A stretch of DNA of 61,161 bases from Bacillota bacterium. Lineage in GTDB: Bacteria; Bacillota; Clostridia; Peptostreptococcales; Acidaminobacteraceae. The stretch covers positions 1-61,161 of the forward strand of contig JAUMWO010000001.1 in assembly GCA_030529605.1 (NCBI GenBank), read 5' to 3'. Positions 37,948 through 60,802 of the stretch are shown here, one piece after another (the stretch's first letter is position 1; every line of letters begins with the position of its first letter). The notes under the pieces were generated by a model that ran no database searches, was not told where the DNA came from, and saw only the letters and a program-made list of their open reading frames with translations. The position numbers were made by a program, and so were the translations under genes.

Positions 37948-38022
37948 TGGCTGGGGATATAGGATTTGAACCTATGAATGACGGAGTCAAAGTCCGGTGC
38001 CTTACCGCTTGGCGAATCCCCA
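37948..38022 (-). tRNA. tRNA-Gln (anticodon UUG)
   Basis: The reverse complement reads TGGGGATTCGCCAAGCGGTAAGGCACCGGACTTTGACTCCGTCATTCATAGGTTCAAATCCTATATCCCCAGCCA. It folds as a cloverleaf with a CTTTGAC anticodon loop and an encoded CCA. Confidence 0.9.
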
Positions 38023-38026
38023 ATGC

Positions 38027-38111
38027 TGGTGGAGGGAGAAGGATTCGAACCTTCGAAATCGACGATAACGGATTTACAGTCCGCCCCCTTTGGCCACTCG
38101 GGAACCCCTCC
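38027..38111 (-). tRNA. tRNA-Tyr (anticodon GUA), long variable arm
   Basis: The reverse complement reads GGAGGGGTTCCCGAGTGGCCAAAGGGGGCGGACTGTAAATCCGTTATCGTCGATTTCGAAGGTTCGAATCCTTCTCCCTCCACCA. Confidence 0.9.
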
Positions 38112-55676: not shown

Positions 55677-58436
55677 CTATTCCACGATCAATCCGAAGGT
55701 CGCCATGGTGAATCCATCGTGCAGACCCGAAATGATATCCTTTTTCCCCGCTCGCACATAGACACCGGCGAGCTGTTTCCCGTAAGTAAAGAGCCCCGTA
55801 ATCGTGTGGAAGGACTCAATCTCCAAAGTCACCGGATGAACATTGCGATTCACCGGCTGTTTTGCGTATTTTTGTATGATATAACCGGCGTCCGCCTTCT
55901 CGCGGAGCAATTCCAGCCACTCGGCATCCGTCGCCGACATCCCCGTCACGACCCCTTTGGACGCATACGAATCGATCGGTTTGAGAATGTACGCATCCTT
56001 CTGCGTCGTGATCTGCGGATCCTCGAGATGCCGCGCCGAGAGATACTCCGTGTGCGGGATATGCCGTTCGATCCATTCTTTTTCCTGTGGTGTCCAAACA
56101 TCCTCGAGCTCCGGATGATGCAGCATTTCGAAGAATCGCTTCGAGTGGACGACCTGCGTATGGAGGCTGCCGATCACGCAAGTCTTTTGTCCCAGACCTT
56201 CGATGAATCCCGGAATCTCGTCATATCGGTTGAGCAGATCCGCCGTCACAAGACGTCGGTACACGATGTCGATCCGCCGACCTTCCACCGTCATAAAACC
56301 GTCCTGCACTTTGATCTGCCTCGGGTCCACCACCTCACAGTCATAACCCCGCTCCAGAAAAGTCTGTCGGAAGCGTTCAAACTCGATGCCGACCCCCGAA
56401 TCCAAAAAGTCCACAATCGCGACGCGCAGGCGCCGAAAGACCGGAAAATTCGGCCAACCGCTGGTGAAATCATGATAGATCGGCTTGATCGCATCCACCC
56501 AGCTGTGGAAGAGCTCAAACGACTGCGTCCACACTTTCGGGAGATCGCGAATCTCCTGCATCACCGCCGATTGCCGGATGCAGCGATTCAGCTCCGCCTC
56601 CTCATTCATCGCCGACGACCCGTCCGTATTCAGCTCACAAAATTGAAACTCGCCCTTACCGTGATAGAAAATATCGAACCGCCCCATCGGGACATAGGGT
56701 TCGTTCATCAGCGGCTGCAAAATCAGCGTCTCGATCCGCGGGTCAAAATCATACAGCGCGCGCACTTCCGGACACGCCTGATAGAGCCGGATCATCTTCT
56801 CGCAGATCAGGTGCATCCGGTGAAGAATGTCCCGGAAGCAAGCGAGATCCGCCTCATGATAGAGCATCGGCAAATGCAGATAGGGCACAATCTCTCCCTT
56901 GTAATATGCTTGGGACGCCTGCACCAGCCGATCGATTCGCTCAAACTCTTCGCGCCGGTCGGCGCGGTTCGTCCAGCGCTCCGCCAAGCTGCCGCAGATT
57001 TGTTCCGCCCGCCGGATCGCAGGAGACTCCCAGTCGGGCACCGCCTTTTCCACATCGTATCGGTCAAAGTCGTAATCCGCACGCAGTTGCGGCTTTTCCA
57101 AAACCTCCGCTCGGAACGCTTCCATGTCCTCTCGATACCGTATGCGCAGCGATTCGGCGATCGATCCATGCGTGCGAATCGCGTCCTGCAGCGCACACAG
57201 CGCATCCTTCGCCGCTCCGTCGGGGTCGACCGTTCGCGCATCGCCGACGCGGTGCAGCAGGTCGAGCAGGAATTCGCGCGAGACCGTGCCGTCCGCACCG
57301 CGGTAGGAGCGCGCTTCCCGATACAGCGCATGGTAGGTTTCCAGGAGATCTTCGCGATACATCAACTCGCCGATCACCGCCGGCACCGCCATCCGGTAGC
57401 GCGCCGGCACCGCATCGGGCACCCGAACCTCGAGATAGCCCTTGAACCGCACAGGCGGAAAGACCATCGTCAAGAAATGGGAGAGATGCTCCGGACCGAA
57501 GCGATTCTCGGCGAGCAGCTCCGCGACCGTCTGTTCGCCCGTCTCGACCGCATCGCCGTTGTCCATCATCAGGATCGGTTTCGAATCGAGCAGGAAATCG
57601 ATGTATCCCTCAAAACTCCACTGCTCTCTCGGCAGCATCGTGCGGGACGGATCGGTGTTTTTCCAGATCGCTTGACGCAGGGTGTCCCCGACCTCGAAGC
57701 ACACCGGGGCGCCGGTCTGCGTCTCCGCATCCCCCGCTCCGGTTACATGCCCCTCGAAGACCGGCGCCGCGTCAAACAGCGCATACAGCGCGTCCGCAAG
57801 GTAATTGGCGACTTGGAACTTCCGGTTGAAGTCGTCGAGGTCGCGATAATCGACCGACACCTGCGTCGAAGCGGTGCCTTTCATCATATAAAGTCCTGCA
57901 GGATGCAGCCGACGAAAATACGCTTCCATGATGGCGTACCGCGGCTTTGGCAGTAGAGCGATCGAATCGATGCGCGACGCCGGATGATAACCGAGCGAGA
58001 CGAGGGATTGGTCCTCACGCAAACAACGACCGATCTCGCCCATCAAATCCGCATACTCCGCTGCGATCTCCCCGATCGTGTTCATCGGGCGCAGGCTGAG
58101 TTCGATCTGTCCTCCCGGCTCCAAGGTCAGCGCCGATTCCCGCTTCTCCATATACAGAGGGCCGATACGGGACACTTCGTTTAAATACCATTTTTGTTCC
58201 AGCAATTTGAGCATCATCGCACAGCTGCCCTGCGGCTCTTCGTAGCCATAGCTCCGCAGATCGTGATCGGCGACCAAAAAATGCTCAAACTCCGCCCCGA
58301 TTTTTCTCGGAGCGGAGCTTCGGTTGCGCTCAAAAAAGTCGCGCATGACTTGGTGATATTCTTCCCTGGTATAGCTTCGATAGACTGTGATGGCATCCTC
58401 CTTTCGAATCGGGACGATTCCTTCCCTCGTGCTCAC
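55677..58436 (-). CDS. Fusion protein: glutamate--cysteine ligase-like (GCS2/plant-type) N-terminal half + glutathionylspermidine-synthase-like ATP-grasp C-terminal half
   Basis: The N-terminal half has GAEFEHFLV, TLEPGGQIELS and KGTASTQVSVD (GCL-like). The C-terminal half has MGRFDIFYHGKGEFQFCELNTDGSSAMNEE (GspS/YgiC-like pre-ATP-grasp). The track start at 58436 is GTG; the alternative is the ATG at 58346. Confidence 0.65.
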   Translation of the reverse strand: MSTREGIVPIRKEDAITVYRSYTREEYHQVMRDFFERNRSSAPRKIGAEFEHFLVADHDLRSYGYEEPQGSCAMMLKLLEQKWYLNEVSRIGPLYMEKRESALTLEPGGQIELSLRPMNTIGEIAAEYADLMGEIGRCLREDQSLVSLGYHPASRIDSIALLPKPRYAIMEAYFRRLHPAGLYMMKGTASTQVSVDYRDLDDFNRKFQVANYLADALYALFDAAPVFEGHVTGAGDAETQTGAPVCFEVGDTLRQAIWKNTDPSRTMLPREQWSFEGYIDFLLDSKPILMMDNGDAVETGEQTVAELLAENRFGPEHLSHFLTMVFPPVRFKGYLEVRVPDAVPARYRMAVPAVIGELMYREDLLETYHALYREARSYRGADGTVSREFLLDLLHRVGDARTVDPDGAAKDALCALQDAIRTHGSIAESLRIRYREDMEAFRAEVLEKPQLRADYDFDRYDVEKAVPDWESPAIRRAEQICGSLAERWTNRADRREEFERIDRLVQASQAYYKGEIVPYLHLPMLYHEADLACFRDILHRMHLICEKMIRLYQACPEVRALYDFDPRIETLILQPLMNEPYVPMGRFDIFYHGKGEFQFCELNTDGSSAMNEEAELNRCIRQSAVMQEIRDLPKVWTQSFELFHSWVDAIKPIYHDFTSGWPNFPVFRRLRVAIVDFLDSGVGIEFERFRQTFLERGYDCEVVDPRQIKVQDGFMTVEGRRIDIVYRRLVTADLLNRYDEIPGFIEGLGQKTCVIGSLHTQVVHSKRFFEMLHHPELEDVWTPQEKEWIERHIPHTEYLSARHLEDPQITTQKDAYILKPIDSYASKGVVTGMSATDAEWLELLREKADAGYIIQKYAKQPVNRNVHPVTLEIESFHTITGLFTYGKQLAGVYVRAGKKDIISGLHDGFTMATFGLIVE

Positions 58437-58530: not shown

Positions 58531-60159
58531 TTAAATCGACTCCGGTACGAAACTCAGCTCGTAGAGTCCTCCTGCGATCGACCGAACTTCCGAGAGCTGC
58601 TCCGCGTCGATGTCCCAAGCGTCGACCATGCGCCCGAGATCGACGATCTCCGAACGCTGCACATTGCCTCCGCTGCCGCTTTCGATCGATAATTTCCCTT
58701 CTGTGACAAAGAGCACCGTTTCATCGTCCAACTCGTAGGACTGACTTTGATCCGGTCCTTGAATCATCACAAACCAGCGATCCGAACCGAGCACGATCGC
58801 CACCTCGTCTTTGCGATAGTACTGCGACCAACGCGGAGCGTTCGCCTCTTCGTACTTTGACGCGGTATAAGGCGCGTACGACGAGATCAGTTCGCGGATC
58901 TCCGCATTCGCCTCGAGCTGGGCCGGCATGTGGTCCAGCTCATAATTCAGATACGCATAGATGTCCCTCGCTTGATCGAGAGCTTCCGGATCGAGATCCA
59001 TGACGTCGACCCCCGCCGCGAGCGGCTTTTGGATCCGATCCTCATAAATTCGGTCGAATCGAGCAGTTTGGCTGCGGAGCGAAACCTGGTATGCTGAAAA
59101 ATAGCCGAAAGTGGCGACCAAGATCAACGCCGCGGCGACACCCGGCACCCAGTGCTGCGTCAGTCGATGATTCCACAGGAGGAGGAAGGTGCTGATCAGC
59201 GAGAAGACTGCGACCATGAGGAGCAGATAGCGCGGTATGGTCATACCGTACAACATGATGCGCAGCCCCACGGAATAAAACAGCATCGCGATCGGAACCA
59301 ACAGAACATAGCCGAAATAATGCGTCGCCGCGAGAGCCCAACGCGCGAATTCTCCCTGTTGTTGCTCGATCGAACGCGAGAAGTAGATCGTCGCGATCGC
59401 GACCAGCAGGTACCAGCTGACGAGATGCCCCATCGTATTTTCCGGAAACGATCGCTCGACCGCGAGCTTGAGGAAATACACATAGAGGATGACGGTATAA
59501 ATCAGCAGAAGCGGCAAGAGAATGTAGAGGAACAACGCGCGGTAAAGAAATGCGACCTTGCGCGGCTCGGATTCTCTCTCCGGATAGAAGGCAAAAAACG
59601 TAAGCGGCCATAGGAACACAAACACGATGCTGGCAATATCGCGAAATAGCCCCCAGCTGTAATCCAGATCGAACAACATGCTGATCGATAAGGTAATAAA
59701 GGTTGATCCCGCGAAAAGAACGAGCATAAAGAAAAGAGACAGGAAAAAGGTCGAAACGATCTGCAGCACATACTTGCCGAGACCTTCCCGATCCCAGAGA
59801 TACGGAATCATCGCGACCGCAATCGTCGACACCGCAATGATCCCGATCGGCCCCACGCTTCGGACGGCATAGGGTTCCCAAAGCATCATGACATAGAGCC
59901 ATGAAGCCGCCGCCACGATCGCTTGAAGGATCAGCGTTTTCCAGACTTCCCAGTTGACGCGCTCACCGATCAGGTGCACGCTCGCCGAAAGCGGAATCAT
60001 CATCAGTAAAAACATTCCCCATTCCGGGGTATCCAGAAACGGCAAGCGCAAGGAAGCGCTCATGGTCAAAGCCAGCAGGAACGCCGCGACATTGGTCACG
60101 GCAAAACGCTTCGAAGAGAGGAAGATTTTTTGGAGACTACCGGCGAAAAATTTCTTCAT
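58531..60159 (-). CDS. DUF4153-like polytopic membrane protein with a soluble C-terminal domain
   Basis: 542 aa with about 10-12 TM helices followed by a roughly 190-aa hydrophilic tail. ATG with SD AAGGAG. The family call is from memory. Confidence 0.55.
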   Translation of the reverse strand: MKKFFAGSLQKIFLSSKRFAVTNVAAFLLALTMSASLRLPFLDTPEWGMFLLMMIPLSASVHLIGERVNWEVWKTLILQAIVAAASWLYVMMLWEPYAVRSVGPIGIIAVSTIAVAMIPYLWDREGLGKYVLQIVSTFFLSLFFMLVLFAGSTFITLSISMLFDLDYSWGLFRDIASIVFVFLWPLTFFAFYPERESEPRKVAFLYRALFLYILLPLLLIYTVILYVYFLKLAVERSFPENTMGHLVSWYLLVAIATIYFSRSIEQQQGEFARWALAATHYFGYVLLVPIAMLFYSVGLRIMLYGMTIPRYLLLMVAVFSLISTFLLLWNHRLTQHWVPGVAAALILVATFGYFSAYQVSLRSQTARFDRIYEDRIQKPLAAGVDVMDLDPEALDQARDIYAYLNYELDHMPAQLEANAEIRELISSYAPYTASKYEEANAPRWSQYYRKDEVAIVLGSDRWFVMIQGPDQSQSYELDDETVLFVTEGKLSIESGSGGNVQRSEIVDLGRMVDAWDIDAEQLSEVRSIAGGLYELSFVPESI

Positions 60160-60259: not shown

Positions 60260-60802
60260 TTACTCGACCTCCGGCTCAATGATCCCATAATTGCCGTCCT
60301 TGCGTTTGTAGACGACATTGATTTCATTGGTATCGCCGTTGAGGAACATATAGAAATCGTGGTTGAGCAGTTCCATCTGAAGCACCGCTTCCTCCGGCAT
60401 CATCGGCTTGACCGCAAAGCGCTTGGATTTGACGATCTTTGGCTCATCGGCGTCTGCGGATGTCGGATCAAACTCCGGAATCTGATCAAATCGAATCGAG
60501 TTGTTGGTCTGGAATCGCTTCTCGAGTTTGGTCTTGTGTTTGCGAAGCTGTCTCGAGATTTTATCGATCGCGTCGTCGATCGCCGAATACATATCCTCCG
60601 ATCTCGACTCCGCCCGAATGATCGATCCATTTTTCAACGGAATGGTGATCTCGACGATGTGGTCATTCTTTTGTGTGCTGAATGTCGCAAACGCTTCGGT
60701 CTCGCTCTTAAACAGTTTATCGAACTTGCTGAGTTTCTTATCGACCTGTTCTTTGATCGATTCCGTGATCGCGATGTTTCGTCCACTTACGATAACTTTC
60801 AT
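60260..60802 (-). CDS. hpf: Ribosome hibernation promoting factor (long HPF)
   Basis: MKVIVSGRNIAITESIKEQVDKKLSKFDKLF..., with a C-terminal dimerisation domain (KSKRFAVKPMMPEEAVLQMELLNHDFYMFLN). Confidence 0.93.
   Translation of the reverse strand: MKVIVSGRNIAITESIKEQVDKKLSKFDKLFKSETEAFATFSTQKNDHIVEITIPLKNGSIIRAESRSEDMYSAIDDAIDKISRQLRKHKTKLEKRFQTNNSIRFDQIPEFDPTSADADEPKIVKSKRFAVKPMMPEEAVLQMELLNHDFYMFLNGDTNEINVVYKRKDGNYGIIEPEVE

Follow-up and report, generated by a model that had tools for sequence, protein, structure and literature searches.

The window, by which we mean the whole 61,161-nucleotide stretch analysed, carries on its reverse strand a single open reading frame encoding a glutamate-cysteine ligase (GCL) domain and an ATP-grasp ligase domain in one polypeptide, preceded by a gene for a multi-pass membrane protein (Table 1); no rRNA lies within the window. 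The frame lies where the initial annotation placed it, is intact and contains no internal stop codons, with every motif quoted there found in the translation. As that annotation also said, the start codon is uncertain; in frame, only GTG 58436 and ATG 58346 are canonical starts. The region homologous to plant GCL starts at residue 14 (sequence match to PDB 2gwc), and in a full-length AlphaFold2 model (mean pLDDT 88.7, pTM 0.58) the first helix spans residues 24–37, so that a start at the ATG (residue 31) would fall mid-helix. A non-canonical start region is also possible: a strong Shine–Dalgarno-like AAGGAGG precedes an in-frame ATC at residue 16, and one relative (L084), when aligned, has a GTG behind AAGGGGGA no more than one residue away from that ATC.

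Table 1. Features of the fused synthetase gene and its surroundings (positions in the window; residues of the 919-residue protein).
Feature	Nucleotides	Strand	Residues	Description
Whole open reading frame	55677–58436	−		919 aa from GTG 58436; stop codon 55677–55679; GCL and ATP-grasp ligase fused
Possible alternative start region	58389–58403	−	16 (ATC)	Shine–Dalgarno-like AAGGAGG 58403–58397, then 5 nt, then in-frame ATC 58391–58389; direct sequence reading
Plant-type GCL domain (predicted)	57102–58379	−	~20–445	Pfam, NCBIfam, PDB, fold
GAEFEHFLV motif			47–55	
GAEFEHF in GCL domain	58278–58298	−		
TLEPGGQIELS motif			104–114	
LEPGGQIELS in GCL domain	58095–58124	−		
PKPRY in GCL domain	57936–57950	−		includes R166
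MKGTASTQVSVD motif			185–196	
Inter-domain linker	57027–57101	−	~446–470	residues 450–465 predicted disordered (pLDDT < 50); length variable in alignment
ATP-grasp carboxylate-amine ligase domain (predicted)	55680–57026	−	~471–919	GspS/CP_ATPgrasp by sequence; eukaryotic-GS-like predicted fold
RFD + 8 residues + FQFCELNTDGSSAMNEE motif			586–613	
R586-F-D588...E601-L-N603-TDGSS motif	56613–56681	−		
DUF4153 multi-pass membrane protein	58531–60159	−		542 aa; Pfam DUF4153 2.4e-15; directly upstream of the fusion gene
Terminator-like hairpin	60246–60229			after the HPF gene

In the nearest genome loci the two halves are separate genes that often overlap by a few bases, so that one indel could join them; the fusion might then be a pseudogene or an error of sequencing or assembly, with two genes misjoined by a lost stop or a frameshift. 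This reading is effectively refuted, and we give it next to no credence. An independent Logan assembly from another run (L003) carries the same 2,760-nt frame intact, with 18 nucleotide differences from the window (10 synonymous and 5 non-synonymous codon changes) and none in the junction region; about 40 other cluster representatives are fused, several of them on many contigs and in many samples; and both domains retain all of their invariant catalytic residues and fold confidently in the full-length model. The assembly join, which the initial annotation had named as something that would refute its proposal, is ruled out by the intact second assembly and by the other fused homologues.

The fused architecture is a recurrent family and not unique to the window. 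An exhaustive protein search returned 3,132 matches, counting either half of the protein, and roughly 40 of the best 150 cluster representatives share the fusion, these representatives coming from Lachnospiraceae and Coriobacteriales metagenome-assembled genomes; a word-indexed search with the full protein had given one full-length match, and the impression of near-uniqueness proved on exhaustive searching to be an artefact of sensitivity. There are 284 relatives among GTDB species genomes; the genome scan gave no close relative, its best hit being 50% identical. Fusibacter, Tissierella, Acidaminobacter and Wansuia, all cultured, are among the carriers of the module. A GCL homologue lies immediately upstream, on the same strand, in 75 of the 80 genome loci with the ATP-grasp gene, the paired genes mostly overlapping or abutting, and two of the five unpaired loci sit at contig edges. 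A two-gene operon running from GCL to ATP-grasp ligase is widespread in anaerobic Clostridia, and the window fusion is its Rosetta-stone version: fusion or fission has occurred more than once, and the coexistence of fused and unfused forms supports a functional link between the two enzymes. Where fused, the genes stand alone amid housekeeping genes, their lack of module neighbours being as expected for a self-sufficient enzyme. The initial suggestion of two consecutive ligations is strongly reinforced by this near-constant adjacency of the same two enzymes; our literature search found no relevant paper on the GCL plus ATP-grasp module.

The N-terminal half is by homology a plant-type GCL, with glutamate-cysteine ligase as its predicted activity, and profile searches bore out the initial assignment. 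Pfam GCS2 (PF04107) matches well above its gathering cutoff (78.4 bits against 21, E = 7.8e-22), and the nearest curated NCBIfam families, plant GCL and EgtA, are both true glutamate-cysteine ligases. The protein falls far below both equivalog cutoffs, at 140.7 bits (E = 4.5e-41) against 463.15 for plant GCL TIGR01436 and at 109.4 bits against 370.8 for EgtA TIGR03444. We therefore regard this half as a relative and not an equivalog of these enzymes, a distinct subfamily by profile score whose amine substrate could be other than cysteine. The match to 2gwc covers residues 14–368 (E = 1.4e-28), and the predicted fold superposes on that structure over 464 columns (Foldseek TM 0.84, target-normalised; rmsd 2.8 Å; 26% identity), against a TM of only 0.65 for YbdK (1r8g); NCBIfam models of YbdK-type ligases gave no match at E <= 1. 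The motifs GxExE, LEPGGQxExS, PKxRY and VRxKxYxExRxxD align with 2gwc, and E49, E51, E106, Q110, E112, R166, Y167, D196, R330, E336 and R338 are invariant in 35 fused proteins. Arg220, a cysteine-pocket residue of the plant enzyme (BjGCL; PMC6463388), aligns with R166, invariant across the fused family, and the position of the plant redox-switch Cys178 is Ala in the window protein.

Sequence places the C-terminal half at the borderline of the GSP_synth-type ATP-grasp ligases. The full protein scores 26.6 bits against Pfam GSP_synth (PF03738; cutoff 29.3, E = 4.4e-6) and the C-terminal half alone 29.6 bits, just over the cutoff; 41 of 42 relatives match the same family at E <= 0.01 (best 1.2e-10), and 39 of the 42 match CP_ATPgrasp_2. 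In the pre-ATP-grasp region, the R-x-D...E-x-N motif lines up with GRFDF...FEYNADSAS in trypanothione synthetase. Profile and fold neighbours both concur with the GspS/YgiC-type assignment made at the outset, which, like that of the GCL half, is far too strong for chance, and the model refines it, placing the predicted fold (pLDDT 89.3) nearer to eukaryotic glutathione synthetase (GS) and homoglutathione (hGSH) synthetase than to GspS. The best Foldseek neighbours comprise GS from human, potato and yeast and hGSH synthetase from soybean (TM 0.60–0.67), and the top 21 (E = 1.6e-17 to 2.3e-14, TM 0.54–0.67) all belong to the eukaryotic GS family—GS, hGSH synthetases and nematode GS-like effectors—except for Cp1B at rank 7; 5oes, 1m0w and 3kak, among the best, are (homo)glutathione synthetases crystallised with γ-Glu-Cys. 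YgiC, YjfC, GspS and trypanothione synthetase are also significant structural neighbours. Sequence identity to GS is 13–16%, and the eukaryotic GS Pfam families PF03917 and PF03199 match neither the window protein nor any of the 42 relatives. In hhalign, a broadened family alignment matched the GS profile end to end (96.8% probability, E = 3.3e-10, 383 columns), against 9% for the family with the single human GS sequence; searching PDB sequences with a profile of the ATP-grasp alignment gave weak matches to Cp1B (5e-4), 3n6x (0.05) and trypanothione synthetase (0.45). The same fold clade holds Cp1B, which uses epoxysuccinate and an amino acid, and YgiC/YjfC, which use a peptide and spermidine (PMC12568646), so that the fold cannot by itself fix the substrates.

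In human GS (hGS), Arg125, Ser151 and Arg267 bind γ-Glu-Cys, and Asp127, Glu144, Asn146, Lys305 and Lys364 serve ATP and Mg (PMC2845819); their window counterparts are R586, S608 and R728 for the former set and D588, E601, N603, K766 and K819 for the latter. Within this half, R586, D588, E601, N603, K766, K819 and R895 are invariant in the 35 fused proteins. hhalign gave no confident counterpart for hGS Glu214/Asn216, Tyr270, Glu368 or Glu425, and placed Ala opposite the glycine-site Arg450 and Phe opposite Lys452; the window protein terminates at hGS position 457 and so lacks the A-loop (Val461/Ala462). An acceptor site so unlike that of GS, together with the nearest sequence families (GSP_synth and CP_ATPgrasp_2) and the YgiC, YjfC, GspS and trypanothione synthetase fold matches, would suit a ligase that acts on a peptide or protein as YgiC/YjfC or GspS do, adding a polyamine or the GCL product to a C-terminus and releasing no free tripeptide. 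We consider this quite improbable. The near-obligate pairing with GCL suggests instead that the carboxylate substrate is what GCL makes, R728 preserves the GS residue (Arg267) holding the γ-glutamyl carboxylate, the fused genes have only housekeeping genes around them, and no conserved small open reading frame or candidate target protein was found beside the module in the related loci. A γ-Glu-Cys-polyamine product is counted under the γ-Glu-Cys-X synthesis that we favour below, and not here.

Genes around the module offer a further line of evidence. The DUF4153 protein of the window has a counterpart in a related locus, encoded immediately ahead of GCL (L004; BLASTP 5e-42), and the family occupies that position in 14 of the related loci, a conserved upstream accessory partner of the module in a minority of cases. 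In the window its gene is probably co-transcribed with the fusion gene, judging from the sequence; no GC-rich canonical terminator was found in the 94-nt gap between them. A role in transport is possible, and a literature search on DUF4153 returned nothing relevant. Searching for a third gene, we found recurrent neighbours to be mostly lineage-specific housekeeping genes (RuvAB, DAP dehydrogenase, a DnaJ-domain protein, cation efflux); the apparent associates are only DUF4153, VOC, MFS, TetR and methyltransferase proteins, each in a minority of loci. The VOC protein has lactoylglutathione lyase and FosA as its nearest curated families and scores far under the cutoffs of thiol-dependent families; the TetR regulator lies next to the GCL gene or is fused to it; the MFS efflux pump is of Mef/EntS type (11 loci); the methyltransferase is of amino-group type; and cation-efflux genes lie near the module in 6 loci. 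The combination of TetR, MFS efflux and VOC would likewise be in keeping with a cluster for drug response or export.

Such pumps, regulators and cation-efflux genes fit an exported product, and DUF4153 is a membrane protein with no assigned role. With the GCL half well under the cutoffs for true GCLs, they could speak for a pair of ligases that builds a non-thiol γ-glutamyl compound—perhaps a metallophore, an osmolyte or a small peptide for secretion—the GCL-like half joining glutamate to some amine that is not cysteine and the ATP-grasp half extending the product. This seems to us unlikely, if worth keeping in view: both nearest curated families use cysteine, the equivalent of cysteine-pocket Arg220 is invariant (role from PMC6463388), the match to the plant GCL fold is very high, and the accessory genes accompany only a minority of loci.

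We lean instead, with moderate confidence, towards a self-contained bifunctional synthetase that would make γ-Glu-Cys and then γ-Glu-Cys-X, X being glycine or another amine; the product of the gene pair is probably glutathione or a related small thiol. The analysis establishes which domains are present, that their catalytic residues are conserved, that the genes are linked and that the fusion is real; substrates, order of reactions and product we infer as follows. From homology, the GCL domain would phosphorylate the γ-carboxylate of glutamate and ligate cysteine to give γ-Glu-Cys. Judging by its fold, its conserved residues and the linkage of the genes, the ATP-grasp domain would then take γ-Glu-Cys as eukaryotic GS does, R728 holding the γ-glutamyl α-carboxylate and R586 and S608 the cysteinyl part, and would phosphorylate the cysteinyl carboxylate with ATP on K766 and K819 and Mg on D588, E601 and N603, before amine X is added to yield γ-Glu-Cys-X. 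Glycine as X would give glutathione; the window protein has neither of the glycine-specific elements of GS, Arg450 and the A-loop, and a different amino acid, or an amine such as a polyamine, could therefore just as well take the place of X.

Glutathione, mycothiol, bacillithiol and trypanothione set the redox and detoxification chemistry of entire lineages, and we know of no major low-molecular-weight thiol for most anaerobic Clostridia. The module described here, small and uncharacterised, with its activities on one gene or two, would by prediction supply a γ-Glu-Cys-based compound. That hypothesis lends itself to direct testing: there are carriers in culture, and expressing one gene in a foreign host should be enough. 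A bolder proposal, which we advance tentatively and think improbable as it stands, is that the GCL-linked ATP-grasp family is the long-missing prokaryotic relative of eukaryotic GS and that, with its plant-type GCL partner, it provides glutathione or some new γ-Glu-Cys-X thiol by a third pathway, assembled independently, in strict anaerobes of the Clostridia and Coriobacteriia, which to our knowledge are generally thought to lack glutathione; on this proposal its partners (DUF4153, TetR, VOC, methyltransferase) would point to a thiol physiology not yet explored. Were the second enzyme truly a GS relative, it would bear on the origin of eukaryotic GS, for which bacterial GshB provides no explanation.

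Among known systems, the closest in plan is GshF (GshAB) of Streptococcus, Listeria, Enterococcus and Pasteurella, which is likewise a single polypeptide with an N-terminal glutamate-cysteine ligase and a C-terminal ATP-grasp domain, a self-sufficient gene for (presumably, in the window protein) two successive ATP-dependent amide ligations. GshF joins an E. coli-type GshA domain to a D-Ala-D-Ala-ligase-like ATP-grasp domain; the window protein, by contrast, joins a plant-type GCS2 domain to an ATP-grasp domain of the GspS/eukaryotic GS clade. No GshF model matched in NCBIfam at E <= 1, and no GshF structure appeared among the PDB sequence matches or the top 50 fold matches, so that the non-GshF architecture proposed by the initial annotation holds, as do all other parts of its interpretation that computation can address: the likeness is a convergent architecture in which only domain order is analogous, with no whole-protein homology.

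Half by half, the nearest structures are eukaryotic. The N-terminal half superposes on plant GCL 2gwc, and the best structural matches of the C-terminal half are GS and hGSH synthetases (2hgs, 5oes, 1m0w, 3kal), whose γ-Glu-Cys, ATP and Mg residues are retained. The eukaryotic pathway uses separate GCL and GS enzymes, whereas the window version is fused and bacterial; its identity is only 26% to plant GCL and about 14% to eukaryotic GS, it has Ala for the redox-switch Cys178 of the former, and it lacks the Pfam GS match, Arg450 and A-loop of the latter. By sequence the second half is nearest to the GSP_synth enzymes (E. coli Gss, trypanothione synthetase, YgiC/YjfC), with which it has the R-x-D...E-x-N motif in common, but its Pfam score lies around the gathering cutoff (26.6–29.6 against 29.3), it has no CHAP amidase domain, and its TM scores to them (0.53–0.58) are lower than those to eukaryotic GS. 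We know of no Gss, trypanothione synthetase or YgiC/YjfC fused to a GCL or operon-linked to a GCL gene. Finally, Cp1B, a fungal enzyme of E-64 biosynthesis (PDB 9cjn), is the best PDB sequence-profile match and a top structural neighbour, and shares its structural relatives with the window ATP-grasp half (PMC12568646); it differs in joining epoxysuccinate to an amino acid within a fungal secondary-metabolite cluster and in having no GCL partner, and the likeness is limited to the common fold.

The fusion gene's 919-codon reading frame, counted from its GTG, runs uninterrupted, and each of the GCL and GspS/YgiC-type motifs quoted in the initial annotation was found at its place in the protein. 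That the fusion is an artefact, an assembly join of two genes, is very improbable: L003, an independent Logan assembly from a separate sequencing run, carries an ORF of identical length (2760 nt) with the same neighbours, and its 18 nucleotide differences from the window (10 synonymous and 5 non-synonymous codon changes) keep the frame, with none near the domain junction. The fusion is thus genuine, as first proposed.

Coordinates of the fusion gene, its neighbours and related features
Feature	Contig or locus	Position	Strand	Description
Two adjacent tRNA genes	window	37951-38111	-	
Fusion gene	window	55677-58436	-	
Antisense ORF, 745 aa	window	55719-57956	+	Arg/His/Pro-rich, low-complexity-looking translation
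Insertion TGAGDAETQTGAPVCFEV	window	57687-57740	-	aa 233-250 of GCL domain; pLDDT about 50-56
5' coding hairpin	window	58287-58320	-	By folding; 14-bp stem then U-run; codons 39-50, including part of GAEFEHF
AAGGAGG/ATC site	window	58389-58403	-	By sequence; perfect AAGGAGG 5 nt upstream of in-frame ATC (aa 16), without canonical start
DUF4153 membrane protein gene	window	58531-60159	-	542 aa; directly upstream of fusion gene
Long-form HPF gene	window	60260-60802	-	Upstream of fusion gene
Long-form HPF gene	L084	3962-4504		Upstream of fusion gene
TetR-GCL fusion	L001	6143-8008		
Methyltransferase fused to ATP-grasp (P0060)	L002	5910-8270		
Methyltransferase after ATP-grasp	L006	5937-6971		
Pyr_redox_2 flavoprotein	L085	9697-10587	-	296 aa, TrxB-sized

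Candidate start codons are GTG 58436, ATG 58346 and, as a possible non-canonical start, ATC 58391 of the AAGGAGG/ATC site; at the position aligned with this site L084, the locus of the closest fused relative (P0136), has GTG preceded by AAGGGGGA. The 5' coding hairpin, whose 81-nt fold (-36 kcal/mol, z = -4.24) was matched by none of 200 shuffles, is identical in L003 and, judged by eye, has no obvious counterpart at the aligned position of L084; it may be an intragenic attenuator or have arisen by chance. Rather than a gene, the long antisense ORF most probably reflects the GC-rich coding strand opposite it. Rfam gave no matches in the window beyond the tRNA genes, and neither rRNA nor riboswitch was found there.

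The initial annotation had described the N-terminal half as a GCS2/plant-like GCL, and both profiles and predicted structure support that assignment. The protein matches Pfam GCS2 (E = 7.8e-22), the half's top curated families are plant-type GCL (TIGR01436, 140.7 bits) and EgtA (109.4 bits), both scores lying far under the equivalog cutoffs, and phmmer matches aa 14-368 to Brassica GCL (2gwc, E = 1.4e-28). Plant-type GCL and EgtA are true Glu-Cys ligases. In an AlphaFold2 model of the full-length protein (mean pLDDT 88.7), the N-terminal half superposes on 2gwc with a TM of 0.84 (rmsd 2.8 Å, 26% identity), YbdK reaching just 0.65. The motifs GxExE, LEPGGQxExS, PKxRY and VRxKxYxExRxxD show no variation across 35 fused homologues; with the numbering offset verified via Cys178 in the 2gwc alignment, R166, the arginine of PKxRY, aligns with BjGCL Arg220, a residue of the cysteine-binding pocket (PMC6463388). 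Cys178 itself, the plant redox switch, is replaced by Ala, and redox control of the plant kind is therefore not to be expected. The insertion within the GCL domain is specific to the window, being missing from nearly all other fused homologues.

The C-terminal half is harder to place. Against GSP_synth (cutoff 29.3) it scores 26.6 bits within the full protein and 29.6 bits in isolation, making it a borderline member by sequence; no NCBIfam models were found over it, and 41 of 42 relatives match GSP_synth at E <= 0.01, with 39 of the 42 matching CP_ATPgrasp_2 as well. A model built from the alignment of these 42 relatives (pLDDT 89.3, pTM 0.89) has as its best Foldseek matches (TM normalised to the query) the eukaryotic GS and homoglutathione synthetases (human 8fbz/2hgs, potato 5oes, yeast 1m0w, soybean 3kal; TM 0.60-0.67, E 1.6e-17 to 1.6e-14), followed by Cp1B (0.64, 1.3e-15), the putative GspS 3n6x (0.59, 6.5e-14), E. 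coli GspS and YjfC/YgiC (0.53-0.58, 9.6e-14 to 3e-11) and trypanothione synthetase (0.48-0.51, 4.0e-12 to 4.2e-11). When 76 family members were compared, profile to profile, with vertebrate GS, the alignment ran end to end (96.8% probability, E = 3.3e-10). The proposed GspS/YgiC-type ATP-grasp clade is supported, with a predicted fold nearer eukaryotic GS. Because Cp1B of the E-64 paper shares these structural neighbours yet acts on other substrates (PMC12568646), the fold marks a clade of carboxylate-amine ligases rather than a substrate; that the ATP-grasp domain modifies a peptide or protein is a reading we consider improbable.

Aligning the half with human GS (sequence identical to 2hgs_A; residue roles from PMC2845819) places R586, S608 and R728 at the gamma-Glu-Cys-binding Arg125, Ser151 and Arg267, K766 and K819 at the ATP phosphate-binding Lys305 and Lys364, and D588, E601 and N603 at the Mg-site Asp127, Glu144 and Asn146, all invariant or nearly so across the family. 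The alignment contains no counterpart of Arg450, which holds the glycine carboxylate; the C-terminus falls short of the A-loop, and Glu214/Asn216, Tyr270, Glu368 and Glu425 have no confident placement. Donor-side residues thus resemble glutathione synthetase and the acceptor side does not, so that X may be glycine, another amino acid or a polyamine. Domains, linkage and accessory genes together lead us to lean slightly towards two successive ATP-dependent ligations, in which the GCL domain would join Glu and Cys and the ATP-grasp domain would then join gamma-Glu-Cys to X, yielding gamma-Glu-Cys-X; glutathione itself we consider roughly half as probable as this general scheme. A non-thiol gamma-glutamyl product is unlikely, though less so than peptide or protein modification. 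The linker between the domains (aa 450-465) is predicted to be disordered, and their relative orientation is undefined in the model (pTM 0.58).

A word-indexed search had made the fusion appear nearly unique, a picture overturned by an exhaustive search that returned 3132 relatives. Of its top 150 cluster representatives, some 40 match both halves in one protein (775-1074 aa). Relatives of the C-terminal half alone, at about 440 aa, number in the hundreds. The fusion protein thus belongs to a sizeable family, whose fused members, where named, come from Lachnospiraceae and Coriobacteriales MAGs, with annotations that go no further than 'glutamate-cysteine ligase family protein' or 'hypothetical'. 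Scanning GTDB species genomes gave 284 relatives; the best 80, which include Fusibacter, Acidaminobacter, Tissierella, Anaeromonas, Oceanirhabdus, Wukongibacter, Wansuia, Fenollaria and some Coriobacteriia, formed our locus survey. In 75 of these loci the ATP-grasp gene is directly preceded, on the same strand, by a separate ORF for a GCL homologue, which usually overlaps or abuts it; of the five loci that depart from this pattern, two lie at the edge of a contig. In a rough NJ tree the window protein and P0136 lie beside the separate-gene clade, fused P0137 falls within it and the remaining fused proteins form deep clades, implying more than one event of fusion or fission.

Other fused genes stand alone amid housekeeping genes, between HPF and ProRS in L084 and beside GreA in L086. 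P0136 is only 44% identical to the window protein, yet the HPF-fusion order is common to both loci; the flagellar genes FlaG, FliD and FliS precede HPF in L084, and the intervening DUF4153 gene is present in the window and absent there. The DUF4153 protein is homologous (E = 5e-42) to a same-position protein whose family occurs there in 14 loci. Since a terminator-like hairpin lies 3' of HPF and the 94-nt DUF4153-fusion gap has no GC-rich canonical terminator, co-transcription of these two genes is plausible. Further partners are a Mef/EntS-like MFS efflux pump (11 loci), a directly downstream VOC protein (8 loci) whose nearest curated families, lactoylglutathione lyase and FosA, both score far under cutoff, and an N6_N4_Mtase/UPF0020-type (amino-group-type) methyltransferase with a DLPYG motif (6 loci), which hints that the product is N-methylated in some lineages; none of the four is universal. 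In L085, the flavoprotein gene, convergent to fused P0164, encodes a candidate disulfide reductase for a new thiol, seen at this one locus. At three of the 80 loci (L001 being the same Acidaminobacter locus as L027; also L042 and L046) a complete TetR repressor (TetR_N plus TetR_HI_0893_C) is fused to the GCL N-terminus, giving proteins of about 625 aa (P0002-P0013) in several Clostridia, such as Acidaminobacter sp. JC074, and five other loci carry the same TetR as a separate gene just upstream. To our knowledge it is unusual for a biosynthetic ligase to carry a fused DNA-binding repressor; the arrangement suggests autoregulation by the product.

A literature search found no papers on the GCL/ATP-grasp module or DUF4153 function, and cultured relatives, among them Tissierella praeacuta DSM 18095 and Fusibacter paucivorans DSM 12116 with the two-gene pair, allow direct testing of the bifunctional ligase reading. 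As the initial annotation held, GshF is built from different halves: the fusion protein would work alike, yet neither of its halves belongs to the GshF lineages. It resembles instead a plant GCL and a eukaryotic-type GS joined in a bacterium, although its C-terminal half fails family-level sequence tests for eukaryotic GS, has no glycine site and, judged by sequence, is a marginal member of GSP_synth. The fusion protein is real and is well supported as a putative, uncharacterised bifunctional ligase, a variation on the bifunctional glutathione-synthetase idea.
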